42,482 nucleotides of DNA from Chlamydiia bacterium (GCA_016213175.1 JACRBF010000039.1:1-42482), one strand, 5' to 3'; shown: positions 1 through 29,851, numbered from the stretch's first letter. A program made the numbers and translations. Notes: generated by a model from the letters alone, not told the origin.

Positions 1-98
1 CAATATCGACACCCAGTATATTGCCCCAGAATTTTAAATCGAAAATCGGCTCAAAAGAACCCGAAAATCGACAGAACTTTACTTTGTAGACATCCTCT
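1..98. repeat. Palindromic MITE-like element family A, partial (loop plus one arm, cut by window edge)
   Basis: Has the same central loop CAATATCGACACCCAGTATATTGCCCC as the full copy at 4165-4337. The arm ends in TTACTTTGTAGACATCCTCT, the terminal inverted repeat of that copy. Confidence 0.9.
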
Positions 99-180
99 AA
101 GAGCCGGGTATTTTGAAGAATTCCTTCTTGAAAGGGGCATCAGGTTCCTTGCCGCAACTTGACAAATAGCTCGCTTGACT

Positions 181-349
181 TATTAACCAGAGGGGTAAAC
201 AAGTGACAACTCGCTTGCTGCGGCTTCGACATATCGATCCTCCATCGTCGTCCATAGTTGTGCTATGGACTTCTCTTTCGGACCGCTGCGCTTCGATCTG
301 TTCTTGCCTCGCAGCGCGATTTGTCACTTGTTTACCCCTCTGGTTAATA
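181..349. repeat. Palindromic MITE-like element family B, full copy (169 bp)
   Basis: 29-bp perfect terminal inverted repeats TATTAACCAGAGGGGTAAACAAGTGACAA / TTGTCACTTGTTTACCCCTCTGGTTAATA and an inner hairpin GTCCATAG-TTGTG-CTATGGAC. Recurs inverted at 1514-1686 and truncated at 4383-4434. Confidence 0.9.
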
Positions 350-412
350 GTCCTGAAGGGCCGGGACTCTCGCCGAGCTGCTCGTTCAAAACTTAATTGC
401 CACTCCCTAAAA

Positions 413-474
413 TATACCGAACGTGATTCAATAATCCAGAAAATCGATGAACCATTACTTTGTAGACATCCTCT
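413..474. repeat. Chimeric element: family C left end fused to family A right end
   Basis: TATACCGAACGTGATTCAATAATC matches 25506-25529. AATAATCCAGAAAATCGATGAACC.TTACTTTGTAGACATCCTCT matches the right arm of 4165-4337. The junction is the shared 7-mer AATAATC. Confidence 0.85.
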
Positions 475-501
475 CAATGTCTGTCCGCAAAAGAGGTGCA
501 A

Positions 502-1506
502 GTGGAACAAGTTATTTTAGATCACGGAACCGGAGCGAAGCTTAGTCGGCAGCTTGTTGAGCTAATCGTCTCTGTATTGGGCGATGTCTACATTGGGGAC
601 ATGGAAGACAGCGCGATTTTGCCTATTCAAGGGAATCGGATTGCAATGACCACCGATTCTTTCGTCGTAGATCCTTTATTTTTTGGTAATGGCGATATTG
701 GAAAAATTGCGGTTTGCGGAACAGTCAATGATCTTAGTGTTATTGGAGCCAAGCCGCTTTATTTAACTCTCTCGCTAATCATCGAAGCAGGGTTTCTTAT
801 TGCAGATTTAAGACGAATCCTCGAGTCCATTCGGAGTACAGCATTGGAAGCTGGAGTGAAAATTGTCGCTGGGGATACCAAGGTTACTAGAGCTGGAGAA
901 ACAGACAAGTTATTCATTAACACCGCTGGGGTGGGCATTTTCAAGGGTTCTCCATTAAAAATGAGGAATGTACAGGTTGGCGACAAAATCATCTTAAGCG
1001 GAATGATTGGAAATCATAGCGTTCATCTTCTTTCAGTTCGAGAAGGGCTGGGCTTTGACACAGCGGTTATAAGCGATTGCGCGGCTTTAAATGGAATGAT
1101 CGATCATCTCTTTGCCGAGGTAGGTGAAAATGTGATCCAATCAATGCGCGATGTAACGCGAGGAGGACTCTCAGCTGTTCTCCATGAATATTCAAATGCG
1201 ACGGGTCAGAAAATGGAAATTTATCAAGAAGCGTTGCCGATCCAACGGGAAACGCTAATGGCTACCGAGATGCTGGGGATTAGTGCCTTGAATTTGGCTA
1301 ATGAGGGCTGTTTGTGCCTATTCGTGAAGTCTGAAAAGGTTGATCAAGTTCTCAATGCATTGAGAAAGCATCGATATGGACAAAAAGCTGTAGAAATTGG
1401 AGAAGTCTCCGCAATGTGCATCAAGTCTGTCCAAATGATCCGACGCGACGGGACCCGTGAAGAGATCGAAGAACTAGAGGGAGCGGAACTCCCACGGCTA
1501 TGCTAG
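502..1506 (+). CDS. hypE: HypE carbamoyl dehydratase ([NiFe]-hydrogenase maturation family, PurM/AIRS fold)
   Basis: Motifs HGTG, TTDSFVVDPLFF.NGDIGKIAVCGTVNDL, GDTKV, MRDVTRGG, ANEG and the C-terminal PRLC with the acceptor Cys. GTG at 502 is better spaced from the AAGAGG RBS than GTG at 496. Confidence 0.93.
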   Translation: MEQVILDHGTGAKLSRQLVELIVSVLGDVYIGDMEDSAILPIQGNRIAMTTDSFVVDPLFFGNGDIGKIAVCGTVNDLSVIGAKPLYLTLSLIIEAGFLIADLRRILESIRSTALEAGVKIVAGDTKVTRAGETDKLFINTAGVGIFKGSPLKMRNVQVGDKIILSGMIGNHSVHLLSVREGLGFDTAVISDCAALNGMIDHLFAEVGENVIQSMRDVTRGGLSAVLHEYSNATGQKMEIYQEALPIQRETLMATEMLGISALNLANEGCLCLFVKSEKVDQVLNALRKHRYGQKAVEIGEVSAMCIKSVQMIRRDGTREEIEELEGAELPRLC

Positions 1507-1513
1507 TACAGTT

Positions 1514-1686
1514 TATTAACCCGAGAGGTCAATAAGTGGCAACAAGCGGCGCTAGCGAGATGAAGTCAGATCGAAGCGCAGCGGTCCGAAGGAGAAGTCC
1601 ATAGTACAACTATAGACGACGATGGAGGATCGATATGTCGAAGCCGCAGCAAGCGAGTTGTCACTTGTTTACCCCTCTGGTTAATA
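1514..1686. repeat. Family B element, inverted copy between hypE and hypF
   Basis: Reverse complement of 181-349 over the core and one arm; the other arm has diverged (TATTAACCCGAGAGGTCAATAAGTGGCAA). Confidence 0.88.
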
Positions 1687-1695
1687 AAGCGCGTA

Positions 1696-1721
1696 GAACC
1701 CTTACTTTGTAGATATCCTCT
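1696..1721. repeat. Family A terminal fragment
   Basis: GAACCCTTACTTTGTAGATATCCTCT has one mismatch to the right end of 4165-4337. Confidence 0.8.
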
Positions 1722-1831
1722 TAATACGGATCAACTTGAGTAGCCTGCGATCGATCGATTATACGCAGCTTTCATGCTAGAGATTATCTCAAGAATTTTT
1801 GTTGCGGATCACTAAGAAATGGGAGAGCCTA

Positions 1832-4132
1832 ATGTCAGAAACCGCGTTAAATAGGATTTTCAAAATCCGAGTGACTGGCATTGTTCAGGGCGTTGGATTT
1901 CGTCCGTTTATTTATCGCCTCGCTCATGCTCATGGAGTTTTGGGTTGGGTGATCAACGACCCTGAAGGGGTTTTGATTGAAGCCCAAGGAGACGCTTCCT
2001 TAGAACAGTTTGTTGCGGCAATATCCGAACAAGCGCCTCCACTGGCCAATGTATTGAATGTGAAAATTATTGAACGGATTGCCTGTGCTAGAGCCCTACA
2101 TAAAATATTCGAGATTCGGGACACTGTCACTATAGGGAAAAAAGAGGTAGTCGTGTCTCCAGATTTTCATGTGTGTAGTGATTGCTTGCAAGAACTTCAA
2201 TCTAAAGGGAACCGACGCTATCGTTATCCATTCATAAATTGTACCAATTGTGGCCCCCGGTTTTCAATCATTCAGAAGTTGCCCTATGATCGCGCTAGCA
2301 CCACGATGTCCGTCTTCAAGATGTGCTCGGAATGCGATCAAGAATACCGAGATCCGTTCGACAGAAGGTATCATGCGCAGCCAAATGCGTGTCCTACCTG
2401 CGGTCCCAATGTGTTTTTATCGGATAGGGAAGGGATTCGTGCTCGCTCAGATCAGGCAATTCAATTCACAATTGATTTGCTTTTATCAGGAAAAATTGTT
2501 GCGATCAAAAGTGTGGGAGGATTTCACTTAACTGTTAATGCGCAAGATGGTGAGGCCGTCGCGTTGCTGCGCAAGCGTAAGCGTCGGGATGTTAAGCCTT
2601 TTGCAGTAATGGTTAACTCTGTCGAAGCCGCTGGAAAATACACTCAGCATACCAAGCAGGAAGCCGATCTACTTGAATCTGCGTCCCGTCCAATTGTGCT
2701 GCTCAAGAAAAAACAGGGAGCTCTTCCGGAGCAAATCGCTCCTCGAAATCCTAACTTGGGTCTTATGATCGCTTCTGCTCCCCTGCATTATTTGCTGCTC
2801 AACGACCCCAGAATGGATATTTTGGTGATGACTAGCGGCAACATTTCGGGTTATCCAATTGTTTATAAAAATACAACAGCTGCTCAGCTGTTTGATGTGG
2901 CAGATGCGATCTTATTCCATAACCGGGATATAGAAACTCGAGCGGATGATTCGGTGGTTCGAGTTTCCTCCTATCTCGATCTTAGGCGGTCTATTGTAAG
3001 CTTTGTAAGAAAATCCAAGGGGTATGCGCCTTACGTTCTTCATATGAAGAAGCCGTTGCACAAAATTATTGCCTATGGTGCTGAACTGAAAACAACGGTG
3101 GCTTTGTCCCAGGACAAGAGGATCTATATCGGTCCTCATATTGGAGATCTCAAAAATGATGAGACCTTTCAGTCTCATCAGAAATGCATCGAACATTTAA
3201 AATGCTTGTATGACATCGAACCGGAGTGGATAGCTTGCGATTTGCACCCGCTATTCCGCTCTGTCAGCTTCGCTCTTACAAAGGGGGAAAACAAGGTGAT
3301 TCGAGTGCAGCATCACCATGCACATATGGCAGCTTGTATGGGAGAAAATCACCTACAAGGGCCTACGATTGGCGTGATCTTAGACGGGACGGGCTATGGC
3401 TTGGATGGGACGATTTGGGGAGGAGAATTTTTAATTGGTGATTATTCATCGTTTATGCGTTCATTCCATCTGCGCCATATTCATTTGTTAGGAGGAGATA
3501 AGGCGATATCTGAACCTTTACGCATCGCTCTTGTTCTGGCTTTAGAAGCATCGGTAGCTGGACAAGTTCCTGCGTTCAAAAAATTCACAGACCAAGAAAG
3601 AGCGGTGTTTACAGCTATGCATTCTAAAGGGATTCATTCGACGCCTACCTCTAGCATGGGTCGCCTGTTTGATGGTGTAGCCGCTTTGTTGGACATCTGT
3701 GTAAAAATGGAATATGAAGCACAAGGTCCCATCGAACTCGAAGCTCTCTTGCAAAGGGATCTTTCCATGGCTGATCCGTATCCATTTAGTTTTGAAAATG
3801 AAACAATTGATTACCGTCCGCTTATCCAAACGATGGTTTACGATTTCTTGAATGGATTGGCTATTGCTGAAATCAGTCGGCGTTTTCACTCTACAATTGT
3901 ACAGATGATCGTTGCGGTTTGTATTCTGATTAGAACAAAGACCAGTATTGCTCAGGTCGTATTGAGCGGCGGGGTTTTTTTAAACGAATTTTTATTGATC
4001 AATTCGATGCACCTGTTAGAGAGTGCTGGATTTGTCCCTTATTGCCATCACACGATCCCGACTAATGACGGGGGAATTGCCCCTGGTCAAATTCTGGTGG
4101 CGGACGCGCTTTTGTCGAGCTATTCTCGATGA
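1832..4132 (+). CDS. hypF: HypF carbamoyltransferase
   Basis: Acylphosphatase domain (GIVQGVGFRPF), four CxxC zinc-finger pairs (CSDC, CTNC, CSEC, CPTC), YrdC-like region (TSGN) and Kae1-like domain (QHHHAH, DGTGYG, SSMGRLFD, LSGGVF, PTNDGG). ATG at 1832 follows GGGAGAG. Confidence 0.95.
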   Translation: MSETALNRIFKIRVTGIVQGVGFRPFIYRLAHAHGVLGWVINDPEGVLIEAQGDASLEQFVAAISEQAPPLANVLNVKIIERIACARALHKIFEIRDTVTIGKKEVVVSPDFHVCSDCLQELQSKGNRRYRYPFINCTNCGPRFSIIQKLPYDRASTTMSVFKMCSECDQEYRDPFDRRYHAQPNACPTCGPNVFLSDREGIRARSDQAIQFTIDLLLSGKIVAIKSVGGFHLTVNAQDGEAVALLRKRKRRDVKPFAVMVNSVEAAGKYTQHTKQEADLLESASRPIVLLKKKQGALPEQIAPRNPNLGLMIASAPLHYLLLNDPRMDILVMTSGNISGYPIVYKNTTAAQLFDVADAILFHNRDIETRADDSVVRVSSYLDLRRSIVSFVRKSKGYAPYVLHMKKPLHKIIAYGAELKTTVALSQDKRIYIGPHIGDLKNDETFQSHQKCIEHLKCLYDIEPEWIACDLHPLFRSVSFALTKGENKVIRVQHHHAHMAACMGENHLQGPTIGVILDGTGYGLDGTIWGGEFLIGDYSSFMRSFHLRHIHLLGGDKAISEPLRIALVLALEASVAGQVPAFKKFTDQERAVFTAMHSKGIHSTPTSSMGRLFDGVAALLDICVKMEYEAQGPIELEALLQRDLSMADPYPFSFENETIDYRPLIQTMVYDFLNGLAIAEISRRFHSTIVQMIVAVCILIRTKTSIAQVVLSGGVFLNEFLLINSMHLLESAGFVPYCHHTIPTNDGGIAPGQILVADALLSSYSR

Positions 4133-4164
4133 GTAATTTTGTCCATGAGAAAAACTGACGCATC

Positions 4165-4337
4165 AGAGGATGTCTACAAAGTAAAGTTCTGTCGATTTTC
4201 GGGTTCTTTTGAGCCGATTTTCGATTTAAATTTCTGGGGCAATATCGACACCCAGTATATTGCCCCAGAAATTTAAATCGAAAATCGGCCAAAATAATCC
4301 AGAAAATCGATGAACCCTTACTTTGTAGACATCCTCT
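4165..4337. repeat. Family A element, full copy (173 bp)
   Basis: 20-bp terminal inverted repeats AGAGGATGTCTACAAAGTAA / TTACTTTGTAGACATCCTCT and a long perfect inner stem GCCGATTTTCGATTTAAATTTCTGGGGCAATAT around an 11-nt loop. Confidence 0.92.
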
Positions 4338-4382
4338 CCAATGAGTTTCCACCAAATCGTCTCTGGGAAGCCCTTCCCAAAT

Positions 4383-4434
4383 TATTAACCAGAGGGGTAA
4401 GCAAGTGACAACTCGCTTGCTGCGGCTTCGACAT
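4383..4434. repeat. Family B left arm, truncated
   Basis: 52 bp with one mismatch to 181-232. Confidence 0.85.
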
Positions 4435-4528
4435 GAGGATTTGAATCGATTTTCTTGGGTACCTTTCAACTGGAACCACTATATACTCGAAATAAAGGTG
4501 GCTGCTAGTATAGGTTGCGAGGAAAGCC

Positions 4529-5008
4529 ATGTCCGTAAATAAGCCGCGTACGATTGACAATCTGGGGGTTGAAGCCTCAGTTCGCTATGCCAAAGATACA
4601 GAACTCTTTGAATCACGCTATATTGAAGAGTCCCGTCTTATTGCGCAGAAGACGGAGGTTCAAGTTGTCTCTCCCTCTGTCCTTTCCGAATTCGATCGGT
4701 TCTATTCGTCCGCTAAAACTGCCCCTTGGGCGCTGTTCTATCCACCGCCTGAGTATTTGTCCTACGGAAAGCCGCTTTTTTCGTATCAGTTGATCCCTTC
4801 GCTGGGCGAGTATGACAAGTTAGAGGAGGATATCGATAAGTTGGAGCAGATGGGGGATGCTTTGGAGGATGAGCAAGAAGGGCATCAGAAAGATCCTGAC
4901 CAGGAGAAGCAAAGACAGGCGCTCGTAGCGCTGTTCCGGTGTTTGAATAAGTTAGATAAGACGTTGTTGTTGATTAATGCGCGGCGCAATCAGTATCAGA
5001 GGGGATAA
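4529..5008 (+). CDS. Conserved chlamydial hypothetical protein (CT273-like), first gene of the T3SS operon
   Basis: GAGG RBS and tight coupling to the TPR chaperone and sctU. The CT273-like assignment is from recall of the sequence style and gene order. Confidence 0.7.
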   Translation: MSVNKPRTIDNLGVEASVRYAKDTELFESRYIEESRLIAQKTEVQVVSPSVLSEFDRFYSSAKTAPWALFYPPPEYLSYGKPLFSYQLIPSLGEYDKLEEDIDKLEQMGDALEDEQEGHQKDPDQEKQRQALVALFRCLNKLDKTLLLINARRNQYQRG

Positions 5009-5010
5009 AG

Positions 5011-5403
5011 ATGCCTGTGAATTGGTTGGAATTTCTGGGTTGGGATCAAGAGGGTGTGAAGGATTTGCGCTATGCCGCCTACTCCTATATTAAGCAGGGG
5101 GTTTATGACGTCGCCCTCATTTTTTTCGACGCCTTGAGCGCTCTTGCTCCGCCCTCTCCCTATGATCTTCAAACGATTGGCGCTTTGCATTTGCAGATTG
5201 GCAATGGGTTGAAGGCGCTCGACTATTTAGATCGCGCGTTGAAGGCGGACCCCTCCCATCTTCCTACGCAGTTGAATCGTTCCAAGGCACTTTTAATGCT
5301 GGGGTATAAGAGGCAAGGGCTGTTGCAAGCGATGGAACTTGCAAAAGCGGGCGATCCGGAAATTGCTTCGCAAGCCTCGGCGTTACTCCTATCCTATAAG
5401 TAG
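5011..5403 (+). CDS. TPR-containing SycD/LcrH-like T3SS chaperone (CT274-like)
   Basis: AYSYIKQGVYDVALIFFDAL and TIGALHLQIG...AL.YLDRAL TPR pattern; lies directly upstream of sctU. Confidence 0.8.
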   Translation: MPVNWLEFLGWDQEGVKDLRYAAYSYIKQGVYDVALIFFDALSALAPPSPYDLQTIGALHLQIGNGLKALDYLDRALKADPSHLPTQLNRSKALLMLGYKRQGLLQAMELAKAGDPEIASQASALLLSYK

Positions 5404-5412
5404 ATCCCCCCC

Positions 5413-6489
5413 ATGGCAGAAAAAACCGAACAAGCGACCCCGAAGAAACTCAAGGACGCGCGGAAAAAAGGACAAGTGGCCAAGATCCAGGATCTTCCTG
5501 CGGCCTTTACCTTTATTGTCTCTCTCGGGGCGTCCTTGGCGATGATGTCCCATTTTTTCGAACAGATCGGCTCTTTCATGCTCCTGATGCTGCGCGAAGT
5601 GCCTAATGTGTCTACCGATTTCAATAATAAAGCGCCCGGGTATTTCCTCTCCGCTATTGACGTGATCTTGAATTCCAGTTTGCCGATCATGGTGCTAGTG
5701 GCCTTCGTTGGGGTTATCGTGAGTTTCTTGGTCATCGGTCCCGTGTTTTCTATGGAGGCCATGAAGTTCGATCTGAAAAAGCTCAACCCCGTGGAAGGGA
5801 TCAAACAAAAATTCAAATTAAAGACATTGATCGAACTGATTAAGTCGGTGGCTAAGATTACAGGCGCTGCTCTCATCATCTATCTCATTATTTGGAATAG
5901 GCTGCCGCAGATCCTTTCAACAGTGATGATGCCCGTCCTGGGATCTGCCCTTGTAGTCAATGATTTTCTTGTTTCGGCTACCATTCAGGTAGGTCTTTTT
6001 TTTCTCTTTGTCGCTCTCCTTGATCTCGCTTTTCAGAAAAAGAATTTTGCCAAAGAGATGATGATGCAGAAATTTGAGGTGAAGCAGGAGTACAAGGATA
6101 CAGAGGGCGATCCAATGATCAAGAGTAGGCGTAGAGAGATATCGCGCGAGATTGCCTATCAAGACGGTCCTTCCGCTGCAAGAAGAGCGCGTGCGATTAT
6201 CACGAACCCCATTCACATTGCCGTTGCTTTGAAGTACAATCCAGCGGAGGAACCGGCGCCCATTATCTTAACGATGGGGGCCGGCGTGATGGCGGAAAAA
6301 ATCATTCAAATCGGACTGGACTATAAAATTCCCATCATGCGGAATGTGGATTTGGCAAGAAGCCTGTACACTAAAGGGAAAATTTCCGAATATATCCCTG
6401 AGGACCTCTACCCGATGGTTGCTGAGATTATTAAATGGCTCGAATCGATCGAAGAAAAACCAGAAGTTAGCAAGGAGCTGTTTCAGTGA
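5413..6489 (+). CDS. sctU: T3SS export apparatus switch protein SctU/CdsU (YscU/FlhB family)
   Basis: EKTEQATPKKLKDARKKGQV, KKLNPVEG, EYKDTEGDP; autocleavage motif present as NPIH (canonical NPTH). Confidence 0.96.
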   Translation: MAEKTEQATPKKLKDARKKGQVAKIQDLPAAFTFIVSLGASLAMMSHFFEQIGSFMLLMLREVPNVSTDFNNKAPGYFLSAIDVILNSSLPIMVLVAFVGVIVSFLVIGPVFSMEAMKFDLKKLNPVEGIKQKFKLKTLIELIKSVAKITGAALIIYLIIWNRLPQILSTVMMPVLGSALVVNDFLVSATIQVGLFFLFVALLDLAFQKKNFAKEMMMQKFEVKQEYKDTEGDPMIKSRRREISREIAYQDGPSAARRARAIITNPIHIAVALKYNPAEEPAPIILTMGAGVMAEKIIQIGLDYKIPIMRNVDLARSLYTKGKISEYIPEDLYPMVAEIIKWLESIEEKPEVSKELFQ

Positions 6490-8612
6490 AGAAGTTCCTA
6501 GACAATCTCACACGCTCTCTCGGTGGAGATCGGATGCTCGCTGCCATTTCAGGCTCCAGCGATCTGATGCTTGCGGCGTTGATTATCGCCATCATCATGA
6601 TGCTGATTTTCCCCGTTTCGCCCGATGTTATCGATATCCTCATCGCCATCAATTTGGGTGTTTCGGTCTCCGTACTCTTCGTGGCGCTCTATATTCAGAA
6701 AGCGGTACACCTCTCGATTTTCCCCTCGCTGCTTCTGATTACGACTCTCTACCGTCTTGGTGTCAACATCTCCTCTACGCGGCAAATTTTGTTGCATGCC
6801 AACGCTGGGCACATCATTTTTGCCTTCGGTAATTTTGTCGTAGGGGGCAGCTTTGTCGTAGGGGGCGTGATCTTCTTGATCATCACGATCGTGCAATTCA
6901 TCGTTGTGACGAAGGGTGCGGAAAGGGTAGCCGAGGTGGCAGCGCGCTTTACCTTGGATGCGATGCCCGGTAAACAGATGTCGATTGACGCGGATCTGCG
7001 CTCCGGCATCATCGACCAGCAGCAGGCGCGCGAACTGAGATTGGGACTTGCCAAAGAGAGCCAGCTCTACGGGGCCATGGACGGTGCGATGAAATTTGTC
7101 AAGGGGGATGCGATCGCGGGGATCGTCATTGCTTTGATCAATATTATCGGGGGACTCATCATCGGGAATGTGATTCACGGGAGGAGTCTCATGGATTCGG
7201 CTCGCATTTACACTCTCCTTTCCATTGGCGATGGTCTTGTTTCGCAAATCCCTTCTCTCATGATTGCCGTAACAGCGGGTATTGTGACGACGCGTGTGTC
7301 CAGCGAAAAAAAAGACGCTCACCTCGGTAAAGAGATCTCTGAGCAGTTGCTCAAACAGCCCAAGGCGCTCATGATTGCAGCGGGAGTGCTCTTTTTTATG
7401 GCGTGGATTCCCGGATTTCCTGCCTGGTCCTTTCTCGTGCTGGCAGCCATCGTGGGTACCTTGGGTTACTTTTTCTGGTCCAATAGCAGAAGAGCTGTAG
7501 CGAAAGCGGCAGCTGGCGTAGGCCCCGTGGATACGGAAGTATCCGGTCATTCCGTTGTGGGGGGGTCTGCGGAAGATTATGCCCTTACTTTGCCCGTCGT
7601 TTTGGAGGTGGGCGTCTCCATTTCGCAGCTCATCCGGAAGGACAAACAGGGCATTACATTCATTGATCAGATGATTCCTAAGATGAGGCATGCTCTCTAT
7701 CAAGATCTTGGCGTCCGCTTCCCAGGTATCCACGTGCGCACCGACTCTGCTTCGTTAGAACCGGGAGAATACGCTGTTCATCTCAATGAAGTGCCCCTCG
7801 CAAGGGGCAAGATTCTGCTGAAGCATCTATTGACGAACGAGACGGAAGAGACGCTCAGGCGCTACAATATCCCCTTTGTCGCGTCCAAAGGATCGATTGG
7901 CATGCCGGCTTTGTGGGTCGATGAAAAGTACCGCGAAATTCTCCAAAGGGCGAGCATTCGTTACTGGACGGGGTTAGAGGTGATTATTCTCCATCTGTCC
8001 CGCTTTTATCGCCAATATGCGAGTGAATTCATCGGAATTCAAGAGGTGCGAGCGATTCTCGAATTTGTGGAAAAATCGTTCCCCGATCTCGTCAAAGAGG
8101 TTTCCCGTCTTGTACCTCTGCAAAAATTGACCGAAATTTTACGCAGGCTTGTCCAAGAACAGGTTTCGATCAAAGATCTGCGGACGATTTTGGAAGCGCT
8201 CAGCGAATGGGCGCAAACGGAGAAAGATACAGTTCTTCTCACGGAGTATGTCCGCTCTTCTTTAAAACGCTATATCAGCTACAAATATTCTCTGGGACAG
8301 ACTGTGCTCTCCGTCTATTTACTCGACCCGGAAATTGAGGATATGGTGCGAGGCGCTGTCAAGCAAACCTCTGCCGGATCGTATCTCGCTCTTGATCCCG
8401 ACTCGGTGCAGCTCATTCTGCACTCCATGCGCGCGATCATTAAACCGACGCCCCCTGGAGGACAGCCTCCTGTTCTGCTGACTGCCATCGACGTGCGCAG
8501 GTTTGTCCGTAAGTTGATCGAAGGGGAGTTCCCCGATCTCGCGGTAGTCTCTTTTCAAGAAGTAGTTCCTGAAATCCGTATTCAGCCTTTAGGCAGAGTC
8601 CAGCTCACTTAG
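6486..8612 (+). CDS. sctV: T3SS export gate SctV/CdsV (LcrD/FlhA family)
   Basis: FIVVTKGAERVAEVAARFTLDAMPGKQMSIDAD and GAMDGAMKFVKGDAIAG signature. Confidence 0.97.
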   Translation: MKKFLDNLTRSLGGDRMLAAISGSSDLMLAALIIAIIMMLIFPVSPDVIDILIAINLGVSVSVLFVALYIQKAVHLSIFPSLLLITTLYRLGVNISSTRQILLHANAGHIIFAFGNFVVGGSFVVGGVIFLIITIVQFIVVTKGAERVAEVAARFTLDAMPGKQMSIDADLRSGIIDQQQARELRLGLAKESQLYGAMDGAMKFVKGDAIAGIVIALINIIGGLIIGNVIHGRSLMDSARIYTLLSIGDGLVSQIPSLMIAVTAGIVTTRVSSEKKDAHLGKEISEQLLKQPKALMIAAGVLFFMAWIPGFPAWSFLVLAAIVGTLGYFFWSNSRRAVAKAAAGVGPVDTEVSGHSVVGGSAEDYALTLPVVLEVGVSISQLIRKDKQGITFIDQMIPKMRHALYQDLGVRFPGIHVRTDSASLEPGEYAVHLNEVPLARGKILLKHLLTNETEETLRRYNIPFVASKGSIGMPALWVDEKYREILQRASIRYWTGLEVIILHLSRFYRQYASEFIGIQEVRAILEFVEKSFPDLVKEVSRLVPLQKLTEILRRLVQEQVSIKDLRTILEALSEWAQTEKDTVLLTEYVRSSLKRYISYKYSLGQTVLSVYLLDPEIEDMVRGAVKQTSAGSYLALDPDSVQLILHSMRAIIKPTPPGGQPPVLLTAIDVRRFVRKLIEGEFPDLAVVSFQEVVPEIRIQPLGRVQLT

Positions 8613-8618
8613 AAAATT

Positions 8619-28219: not shown

Positions 28220-28272
28220 AATCCTATATAGATTATTACAAGTAAGTTAAATAGTTTAAGTATTGAGATATG

Positions 28273-28301
28273 TTGACGTCAATATCTTATTGGTGTAAGT
28301 T
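28273..28301 (+). promoter_or_regulatory. Putative sigma66 promoter of the Hip operon
   Basis: TTGACG-17 bp-TAAGTT, 22 bp before the ATG at 28324. Confidence 0.55.
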
Positions 28302-28323
28302 GAAGTCAAAAATCAGAGCTTTG

Positions 28324-29235
28324 ATGGAAGAGCATTGTTTTTGCTGTTTGCTGGCTTTAGGAAAAGAAAGTGCTCACGGCCTGCACCAACGATGTTTTCG
28401 CAACTGGTTTGGAGTGGATGGTTTGCATGCTCCTTTTCGATTAACTATGAAAACCGCGGGGAATAGCAATGATCCGAAAGCAGAACTCAACTCCAGTTTT
28501 TTCCATGGAAAATTCAGGAAATATTCCGCCAAATTAGGGGAGTCTAGTTACATCATTAAAGTACGGCAATCGTCTTTTCCCGATCTTCCTGCCATGGAGT
28601 TTTTATGTAATCAAATCGCAAAAAAACTGGGCATAAATATTCCCGATTTTTATCTCATTCGATTAGAGGGAGAGCCGGCCTTTGTTTCCAAAAATTTCAT
28701 GGAACAATACCCAGGAGCCAATTTGGTGCACCTGTACCGATTCTTAGGAGAGCAACCCTTTGATTTAAAAACAATTTTACAAGTGATTTCCGATCACACA
28801 GGAAAATCTGCAGATATTGAACAATTTATCAAATTGTGCCTCTTTGATGTCTTCATAGGTAACCATGATCGACACGGTAGGAATTTGGCCCTGATCCAGA
28901 CGGCTCAGGGTAAAATGTTATCTCCCATCTATGACAATCCTTCTTGTTTAGGCATTGAGGAGGAAGGGTTTTTAAAGGCGGTTTTAGAACCGTGTGGGAA
29001 AATTCATTCCTCTCGTTCTAAAGAACCGAAAATGCGTGAATATGCTCTTGATTTTTGCGAGATGGGATACGAAGAGCTTGTCGTGCAAGTCTACCTTTCT
29101 ATTGCACTTCAAGAGATTGTGGATTTAGTGAGCGCAAGTTTTATTTCCCCTACAAGAAAAATGGCATTTTCTAAGCTCTTAACGAGAAGATACCAGGAAC
29201 TCAAAGAGGTGGCTGATGCAGATTCCGACCGATAA
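28324..29235 (+). CDS. HipA/HipT-family Ser/Thr kinase toxin (core kinase only)
   Basis: YIIK, EFLC.QIA..LGI, FDVFIGNHDRHGRN catalytic loop, LSPIYD. N-terminal CxxC...HxxC and no HipA N-terminal subdomain. Confidence 0.88.
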   Translation: MEEHCFCCLLALGKESAHGLHQRCFRNWFGVDGLHAPFRLTMKTAGNSNDPKAELNSSFFHGKFRKYSAKLGESSYIIKVRQSSFPDLPAMEFLCNQIAKKLGINIPDFYLIRLEGEPAFVSKNFMEQYPGANLVHLYRFLGEQPFDLKTILQVISDHTGKSADIEQFIKLCLFDVFIGNHDRHGRNLALIQTAQGKMLSPIYDNPSCLGIEEEGFLKAVLEPCGKIHSSRSKEPKMREYALDFCEMGYEELVVQVYLSIALQEIVDLVSASFISPTRKMAFSKLLTRRYQELKEVADADSDR

Positions 29236-29851
29236 AGTGCCATCTGTGCTCGTCTACTTGGAACGAAGAAAAAGTCGCAAGTTCGTTGGCGAATTAAAGT
29301 ATAATTTTAGAAAACATTTATATGTTTTCGTCTATGATAAAGCGTACTTGCGTGCGAATCTCATTCCATTGGGACCAGAATTGCCGTTGAGTCCAAGAAA
29401 ATTCCTGTCTTCCTCTCTGTTTGAGTCATTTATCGATCGACTTCCTTCGCGGGAAAATCCTGCATATCAAGAATATTGCGCAGCAGAGAATATTGAAGTC
29501 ACTGAACAAGATCCTTTTATTTTGCTCACTACTATTGGGAAAAGAGGTCCCTCTTCCTTCATTTTTGAACGACAAAAGCAAGCCTTCTTAGGAGCTATAG
29601 AATTGAAAGGTTTTCGTAAAAAACTTGGATTAACAACACGAGAATTTGCTATCGGATTTTCTATTGCCACAAAAACGCTTAGCTCTATCGAGAATGGACG
29701 TTCAGACGGGAGAGATGCCATGAAACGACTTGAGCTGTACATCCGCTTCCCTGAAGTGGCCCTTTTTGAATTTCGGAGAAACTGCGCTGCGATCCATCGA
29801 GATAAGCGGAAACAGGTAGAACATATTCTCTCGACTTGGCCACTTTTTTAG
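29216..29851 (+). CDS. Putative antitoxin: HipS-like (HipA N-terminal) domain fused to C-terminal XRE helix-turn-helix
   Basis: VGEL......YVFVYD.AY...PLGPELPL......SSSLFESF.DRLP, then LKGFRKKLGLTTREFA....IATKTLSSIENG; overlaps the kinase stop by 20 bp. Confidence 0.8.
   Translation: MQIPTDKVPSVLVYLERRKSRKFVGELKYNFRKHLYVFVYDKAYLRANLIPLGPELPLSPRKFLSSSLFESFIDRLPSRENPAYQEYCAAENIEVTEQDPFILLTTIGKRGPSSFIFERQKQAFLGAIELKGFRKKLGLTTREFAIGFSIATKTLSSIENGRSDGRDAMKRLELYIRFPEVALFEFRRNCAAIHRDKRKQVEHILSTWPLF

Follow-up and report, generated by a model that had tools for sequence, protein, structure and literature searches.

The 42,482-nucleotide stretch analysed here, called the window in its full length, derives from a Chlamydiia bacterium (GCA_016213175.1, JACRBF010000039.1:1-42482) and carries on one strand, at positions 502 to 4,132, the genes hypE and hypF. 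The pair probably represents an orphan HypE-HypF module that was gained by horizontal transfer and operates independently of hydrogenases, with a core E and F chemistry predicted from the protein family. Both genes are intact, conserved and of the orphan lineage, and this lineage exists in genomes without a hydrogenase or HypD. HypE and HypF are textbook single-purpose enzymes making the cyanide ligands of [NiFe] hydrogenases: HypF moves a carbamoyl group from carbamoyl phosphate to the cysteine at the end of HypE, after which dehydration by HypE yields a thiocyanate that serves as CN donor to the iron on HypCD. The window is a complete contig (C23) of a genome assembled into 61 contigs (1.19 Mb, 86.26% complete, 0.37% contaminated), and all negative results for the assembly given below have that completeness as their scope. 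The genome harbouring the pair is estimated at ~1.2-1.4 Mb and is that of a host-dependent organism.

Two intact genes of the orphan lineage

The hypE reading frame spans 496..1506 on the plus strand. A GTG at 496 is a possible alternative start, but the GTG at 502, six bases past AAGAGG, is the likelier one, giving a gene (502..1506) for a protein of 334 residues. The product reaches 408.3 bits against TIGR02124 (cut-off 251.6) over profile positions 1-332, matches both the N- and C-terminal AIRS domains (PF00586 and PF02769) and ends in ELPRLC, where the cysteine of the PR(I/V/L)C tail is the carbamoylation/cyanation site of the HypE family. The downstream hypF (1832..4132, plus strand, 766 residues) lies in an open reading frame (ORF) spanning 1799..4132, with its ATG at 1832 preceded by GGGAGAG. 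HypF scores 739.5 bits against TIGR00143 (cut-off 466.1) and contains all five HypF domain families, namely acylphosphatase (PF00708), zinc fingers (PF07503, in two stretches), YrdC (PF01300) and Kae1-like (PF17788 and PF22521); the zinc-finger CxxC pairs and an HHHAH motif are visible in the translation. The closest solved chains are 3vti_C (274 bits), 2i6r and 2z1e for HypE, and 3vth_A (586 bits) and 4g9i for HypF. A full-length HypE with a PRLC terminus and a HypF with all domains, as described in an earlier first-pass annotation made from the DNA sequence alone, are thereby confirmed, both far above the curated cut-offs.

Conservation within the clade points in the same direction. HypE retains 84 of the 85 columns that are invariant across the other 40 clade members and HypF 99 of the 101 invariant across the other 35, in both cases a typical value for members. 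The two genes follow each other in the same orientation, separated by a spacer that contains a 177-nt repeat and neither hypC nor hypD. Their GC content at third codon positions (GC3) is 0.42-0.43, against a mean of 0.52 (sd 0.06) for the other window genes, which fits a foreign origin, though the deviation is just ~1.7 sd. The correlation of their codon usage with that of the window genes is 0.76 and 0.84, inside the 0.66-0.93 spanned by the other genes. A scan of positions 1-4700 for promoters and terminators was not informative, with 9 promoter-like sites against 6.9 expected.

The best matches to both proteins are metagenome proteins, 66-70% identical for HypE and 56-63% for HypF, followed by proteins (HypE 60-66%, HypF 52-56%) from Streptomyces, Nocardia, Saccharothrix, Kitasatospora, Amycolatopsis, Paraburkholderia/Burkholderia, Sorangium, Cystobacter and Clostridia. 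In a careful IQ-TREE analysis of 79 HypE rows, from which 17 near-duplicate loci had been left out, 42 orphan rows (the window included) were separated from 37 canonical rows with a split support of 100/100, and the window protein was sister to three metagenome proteins (100/93). The HypF tree likewise placed the window in starred sets composed solely of orphan rows. Uniting the window with three chlamydial canonical HypE proteins in one clade was rejected by the approximately unbiased (AU) test (delta lnL 88.3, p 7e-8), for a group that was defined after the tree had been viewed. The C-terminal tail reads PRLC in all 41 other orphan rows as well as in the window, and PRIC in 37/37 canonical rows, the three chlamydial ones among them. 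Since the tail motif separates the two sets perfectly, the PRLC quoted in the first-pass annotation is a signature of the orphan clade.

Members of the clade were found in Actinomycetota, Myxococcota, Pseudomonadota and Bacteroidota, and on plasmids; the lineage has spread by horizontal transfer over at least five phyla as well as plasmids. Nine plasmid records carry the module at 60-80% identity, including an 82-kb plasmid of Citrobacter freundii with an operon of LysR, cysteine hydrolase, hypE, hypF, HAD phosphatase and MFS genes, and the symbiosis plasmid pBPHY02 of P. phymatum (Bphy_7270-7272, 6301-10365 in locus L212). A metagenome scan with generic HypF motifs returned almost exclusively canonical types (79 of 80 loci, 39-49% identity), with a single locus (L137, 54%) in the clade.

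Gene order, partners and hydrogenase distribution

Sampling one genome per species yielded 80 loci, of which 46 were orphan (HypE 48-64% identical to that of the window) and 34 canonical (40-46%). All 46 orphan loci have hypE followed directly by hypF, with no hypC, hypD, hypA or protease gene within 10 kb, whereas the canonical loci are without exception (34/34) arranged as hypC-hypD-hypE or hypF-hypC-hypD-hypE. The trees and the survey of homologue neighbourhoods, both proposed in the first-pass annotation, thus agree on a separate clade in which hypE and hypF travel without hypC and hypD. Clustering of neighbouring genes further identified an isochorismatase-family cysteine hydrolase (~194 residues, PF00857) in 46/46 orphan loci and in 0/34 canonical ones. 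In 36 loci the hydrolase gene immediately precedes the pair in the same orientation; in one it lies 343 bp upstream, in five it is downstream of hypF and in four it is divergent. Other neighbours vary and include ATP-grasp ligases, class-III aminotransferases, EamA or MFS exporters and DJ-1/PfpI proteins.

HypD is present in 23 of the 46 carrier genomes and absent in the other 23. Every HypD-positive carrier holds a second full-score HypE, located at most 400 bp from HypD in 22 genomes and 24 kb away in one, while the HypD-negative carriers have exactly one full-score HypE each (23/23; two also have a sub-threshold paralogue). Strong matches to the [NiFe] large subunit are confined to the 23 HypD-positive carriers; among the HypD-negative ones, 21 of 23 have no large-subunit match over the cut-off and the remaining two have 28-bit matches covering profile positions 5-67 only. 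This distribution of HypD, second HypE and large subunit indicates that the orphan pair neither needs nor replaces a hydrogenase set.

In a published expression table, which lists them plainly as hyp genes, Bphy_7270-7272 fall by log2 -5.2 to -7.5 in nodules formed by a nifA mutant; few genes in bean nodules depend more strongly on NifA than these and a nearby ectB-like transaminase gene (log2 -5.2 to -7.6; PMC8305402). The drop in nifA-mutant nodules means that at least this clade member is expressed. A passage in a study of decRiPPter clusters remarks that Streptomyces hypE/hypF genes situated next to an ATP-grasp gene, with no further hyp genes, likely have a 'novel function' (PMC7794033). 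A full-text literature search covering main texts returned no functional study of orphan HypEF, and this remark was the only relevant one. Complex prediction for the HypE of Hafnia with its own cysteine hydrolase gave, with both proteins entered as alignments, scores of 0.00 and 0.00, which are below the mark and speak neither for nor against binding. As a separate observation, one locus in a 1.4-Mb alphaproteobacterial metagenome-assembled genome (L095, 13342-17617) has hydrolase, hypE and hypF followed by carA and carB; it is the only locus seen that ties the orphan module to carbamoyl-phosphate synthesis, and the gene order may hint at the substrate.

In the chlamydial genome itself, an NCBIfam scan of the 34 window ORFs detected no further hyp or hydrogenase gene, which bears out the statement in the first-pass annotation that hypA, hypB, hypC, hypD and hydrogenase subunits are missing from the 42 kb. 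The genome-wide profile search that it proposed gave the same picture, with nothing over threshold: Pfam searches of the assembly returned no match for HypD (PF01924), HypC (PF01455), the [NiFe] large subunit (PF00374) or Complex1_49kDa (PF00346), family searches found neither HypA nor an [FeFe] large subunit, and the one HypB-like match was sub-threshold (18.7 bits). When all proteins of two chlamydial hydrogenase operons were used as tblastn queries, only the window hypE and hypF were matched. As 14% of the genome is missing, these results do not prove that a hydrogenase is absent.

The first-pass annotation had started from the premise that chlamydial hydrogenases are chiefly of the [FeFe] type. 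This is incomplete, as 12 genomes of a 300-genome sample encode type-3b [NiFe] enzymes with full hyp sets. HypF exceeded the cut-off in 12 of the 300 chlamydial genomes scored, namely this genome and 11 others, and a further genome (G281) has HypF fragments at contig ends. All 12 other HypF-bearing genomes contain HypD, and in each the contig with hypF also encodes a [NiFe] large subunit of ~450-480 residues; three of these hydrogenase carriers (G088, G269 and G281) belong to the window organism's own family. The operon of G147 consists of hydB, an ORF for a cyclic-nucleotide-binding protein, hydG, small subunit, large subunit, protease, hypA, hypF, hypC, hypD, hypE and a nickel transporter, and its subunit make-up as read from the sequence assigns the chlamydial hydrogenase operon to type 3b. 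This matches the type-3b [NiFe] hydrogenases described for two Rhabdochlamydiaceae genomes and one SM23-39 genome (Köstlbacher et al. 2021, PMC8242063). The proteins of G088 and G147 are similar to each other (HypF 66%, HypD 82% and large subunit 82% identical) and distant from those of the window (HypF 35%, HypE 40%). With the window HypE as query, 15 of 400 chlamydial genomes were matched, the other 14 all at 36-42% identity, so the HypE type of the window is present in 1/400 of the chlamydial genomes sampled. The cyclic-nucleotide-binding-domain ORF between hydB and hydG, observed in G147 (L046, 7616-8077) and G088 (L047, 7394-7858), is 73% identical between the two families and may encode a regulatory subunit of the type-3b enzymes.

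Genomic setting and alternative explanations

The noncoding DNA surrounding hypE and hypF is made up of two families of palindromic repeats resembling miniature inverted-repeat transposable elements (stretches 1-98, 180-349, 430-475, 1512-1722 and 4165-4434), and the 500 bp 5' of hypE are all repeats. The contig begins inside a family-B repeat, of which the right half is present (1..98, unitig depth ~488), followed by a first, 170-nt copy of family A (180..349) and, just 5' of hypE, a fragment of a family-B repeat end on the plus strand (430..475). A second copy of family A, inverted, occupies the hypE-hypF spacer (1512..1688), with 121 nt that are 98% complementary to 180-300, and a complete family-B repeat (4165..4337, unitig depth ~599) and a partial family-A repeat (4382..4434) lie 3' of hypF. 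By blastn, family B has 132 matches over 42 of the 61 contigs and family A is present on four. Given this dispersal over the genome's other contigs, the repeats are a trait of the genome and not of hypE and hypF. The idea that the flanking repeats mark a mobile hypEF cassette was rejected, as the same repeats are found at gene ends genome-wide.

Downstream on the plus strand (4529..9788) are an ORF of 159 residues and genes for an SctY-like chaperone and for the chlamydial type III secretion system (T3SS) components SctU, SctV and SctW. The core T3SS genes do not follow hypF directly, as the first-pass annotation had it; ~400 bp of palindromic repeats (4133-4528), the 159-residue ORF and the SctY-like chaperone intervene. 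A pair of ORFs of 159 and 130 residues is kept in 12/12 same-family relatives searched. In four of four same-family relatives the T3SS chaperone pair is flanked by genes that here lie in the interior of contigs C58 (15079-24227) and C46 (2386-3775), which means that the T3SS neighbourhood has been rearranged in this genome. Defining an insertion site by synteny was uninformative for this reason, the nearest relatives being just 45-61% identical in the probe protein. The other window genes are chlamydial in character in the NCBIfam scan (SctU by model PRK06298, SctV, SctW, MalQ, GlgA and ribosomal proteins). Elsewhere in the window, two adjacent ORFs (28270-29235 and 29216-29851; 321 and 211 residues) without an NCBIfam match have a GC content of 0.41 and a GC3 of 0.36-0.40, clearly below their neighbours, and are possibly foreign or fast-evolving genes. 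A 1164-residue ORF on the minus strand (21971-25465) contains a beta-strand repeat, and its C-terminal region is of the autotransporter type, with an EprS-like match of 103.6 bits that stays below the cut-off.

Several observations weigh against an acquired, hydrogenase-independent module. No cysteine hydrolase was found in the 501 bp upstream of hypE, after hypF or in the assembly as a whole (tblastn, Pfam), nor was an ATP-grasp ligase, aminotransferase or exporter seen with the window copy. Matches of 25-30 residues in three intergenic stretches were considered as hydrolase remnants and rejected, as they fall within dispersed repeats. The check for CarAB suggested in the first-pass annotation found no carbamoyl-phosphate synthetase in the assembly, the sole match being one of 25 bits, and neither carbamate kinase nor a transcarbamoylase of the ornithine or aspartate type was detected, so that the usual substrate has no visible source. 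The window HypE sits on a long terminal branch in the careful tree (0.40, where the median is 0.14), and the protein has five of the seven clade signature residues, with two differing. Only 86% of the genome is represented, and the contig opens inside a repeat 501 bp upstream of hypE; the assembly could easily have missed a hydrolase gene of ~600 bp lying between repeats. Attempts to extend the contig upstream with public reads found no unique sequence to follow from this repeat. As regards the wider lineage, 4.7 kb separate the P. phymatum module from hydrogenase structural genes, and the screen of 10-kb neighbourhoods for large subunits relied solely on type-3b queries and would miss a case of this kind, a weakness from which the genome-wide Pfam searches for HypD and large subunit are free. 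Proximity and NifA co-regulation in P. phymatum leave room for a link to hydrogenase in some hosts, at odds with strict independence in every host.

Much of this could alternatively be read as decay, in which a whole module was acquired, the hydrolase and accessory genes were lost by repeat-mediated rearrangement and the remaining pair is useless. The hydrolase that accompanies all 46 other loci, the carbamoyl-phosphate source and two of the signature residues are the missing items, the HypE branch is long, repeats lie on all sides with the 177-nt repeat interrupting a usually tight hypE-hypF junction, and the local gene order differs from that of all four same-family relatives examined. Decay is nevertheless unlikely: the frames are intact across 334 and 766 codons, the clade-invariant columns are kept no worse than in typical members, plausible ribosome-binding sites are retained, and palindromic repeats at gene ends are normal across the genome and do not single out hypE and hypF. 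It is very improbable that the pair serves ordinary maturation of a [NiFe] hydrogenase encoded, with hypABCD, in the unassembled 14% of the genome. The assembly does break at repeats, and type-3b enzymes do occur in the same chlamydial family, but the 12 chlamydial hydrogenase operons all bring their own hypF beside the large subunit, with Hyp proteins only 35-42% identical to those of the window; the 23 HypD-positive orphan carriers all possess a separate canonical HypE, so that the orphan copy is no replacement, and both tree and PRLC tail set the window outside canonical HypE. The hidden [NiFe] system that the first-pass annotation offered as one explanation was not found in the assembly and is also unlikely from the kind of HypE and HypF present.

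An artefact of assembly or binning, with hypE and hypF coming from another organism or from some strains only and joined via shared repeats, appears extremely improbable. Only one public run (X1, probably the source) holds the stretch, and no Logan contig spans it: hypE is on a contig of 1222 bp (depth 10.4), hypF on one of 2535 bp (15.7) and the T3SS side on one of 9418 bp (20.9). With three separate contigs ending in repeats, the order hypE, hypF, T3SS rests on the original assembler. The depth differences could hint at strain-variable presence, although Logan contig depths can neither rank genes nor be taken as copy number, and the low GC3 of the two genes is in line with a foreign source. 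On the other side, both pieces run from unique coding sequence into repeat families dispersed over this very genome, sharing of which by another organism is not expected; contamination is low and the codon usage of both genes is inside the range of the other window genes. An acquired copy of the orphan module thus stands as the preferred reading. The suggestion in the first-pass annotation that HypEF had been repurposed holds with respect to hydrogenase independence, which is backed by phylogeny, gene order, the PRLC and PRIC tails and the half of the carriers that lack HypD and hydrogenase genome-wide; it does not hold as a chlamydial invention, the pair being an acquired form of a widespread module.

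Proposed chemistry and comparison with known systems

In the proposed mechanism, HypF would use carbamoyl phosphate, or carbamate, and ATP to form a carbamoyl-adenylate and then carbamoylate the C-terminal cysteine of HypE (PRLC), which HypE would convert by ATP-dependent dehydration into an enzyme-bound thiocyanate. The cyano (or carbamoyl) group would then go to some acceptor distinct from the HypCD iron, as a rule with help from the cysteine hydrolase, to give a small exported molecule. Only the E and F steps are visible in this chlamydia, and the carbamoyl donor may perhaps be host-derived, or be carbamate. There is a rather slim prospect that the obligately host-associated chlamydia runs a working hydrogenase-free HypF-HypE cyanation inside the eukaryotic cell, converting host carbamoyl phosphate or carbamate into a cyano or thiocyanate metabolite, free cyanide or thiocyanate. 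If true, this would amount to a novel chemistry for a symbiont or pathogen, carried out by the smallest natural form of the module (two genes).

The conserved sister lineage contradicts the single-purpose picture of HypE and HypF. Its occurrence in hydrogenase-free genomes, together with expression in nodules, therefore argues that S-carbamoylation/dehydration chemistry has a second use. The module itself was already known but unstudied, and the chlamydial copy is its acquired member and an extreme case, with two core genes and no visible carbamoyl-phosphate synthesis in a small host-dependent genome. For annotators, the labels HypE and HypF alone are no evidence of hydrogen metabolism, and a PRLC tail and hypE preceding hypF are quick discriminators of the orphan type.

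Three known systems can be set beside the window pair. Canonical HypE and HypF have the same domain architecture, scores over the same cut-offs, a HypE tail ending in cysteine and a HypF with the zinc-finger CxxC pairs and the HHHAH motif, and the first two chemical steps are presumably alike. They differ in the PRIC tail and the hypF-hypC-hypD-hypE order, as opposed to PRLC, hypE-hypF and a separate clade in the window. The chlamydial type-3b operons come from the same phylum, three of them from the same family, and also encode HypE and HypF, but their hypF-hypC-hypD-hypE genes are embedded in a setting of hydB, cyclic-nucleotide-binding ORF, hydG, hydD, hydA, protease and hypA on one side and nicO on the other that the window lacks. 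Their HypF is 35% and their HypE 36-42% identical to the window proteins, and a common HypE clade is rejected by the AU test. Closest are the orphan hydrolase-HypE-HypF modules, which share with the window copy the clade, the hypE-hypF order, the PRLC tail and the independence of HypCD. The chlamydial copy departs from them in having no visible hydrolase, ATP-grasp, aminotransferase or exporter gene and no visible carbamoyl-phosphate metabolism, and in its setting among palindromic repeats beside T3SS genes.

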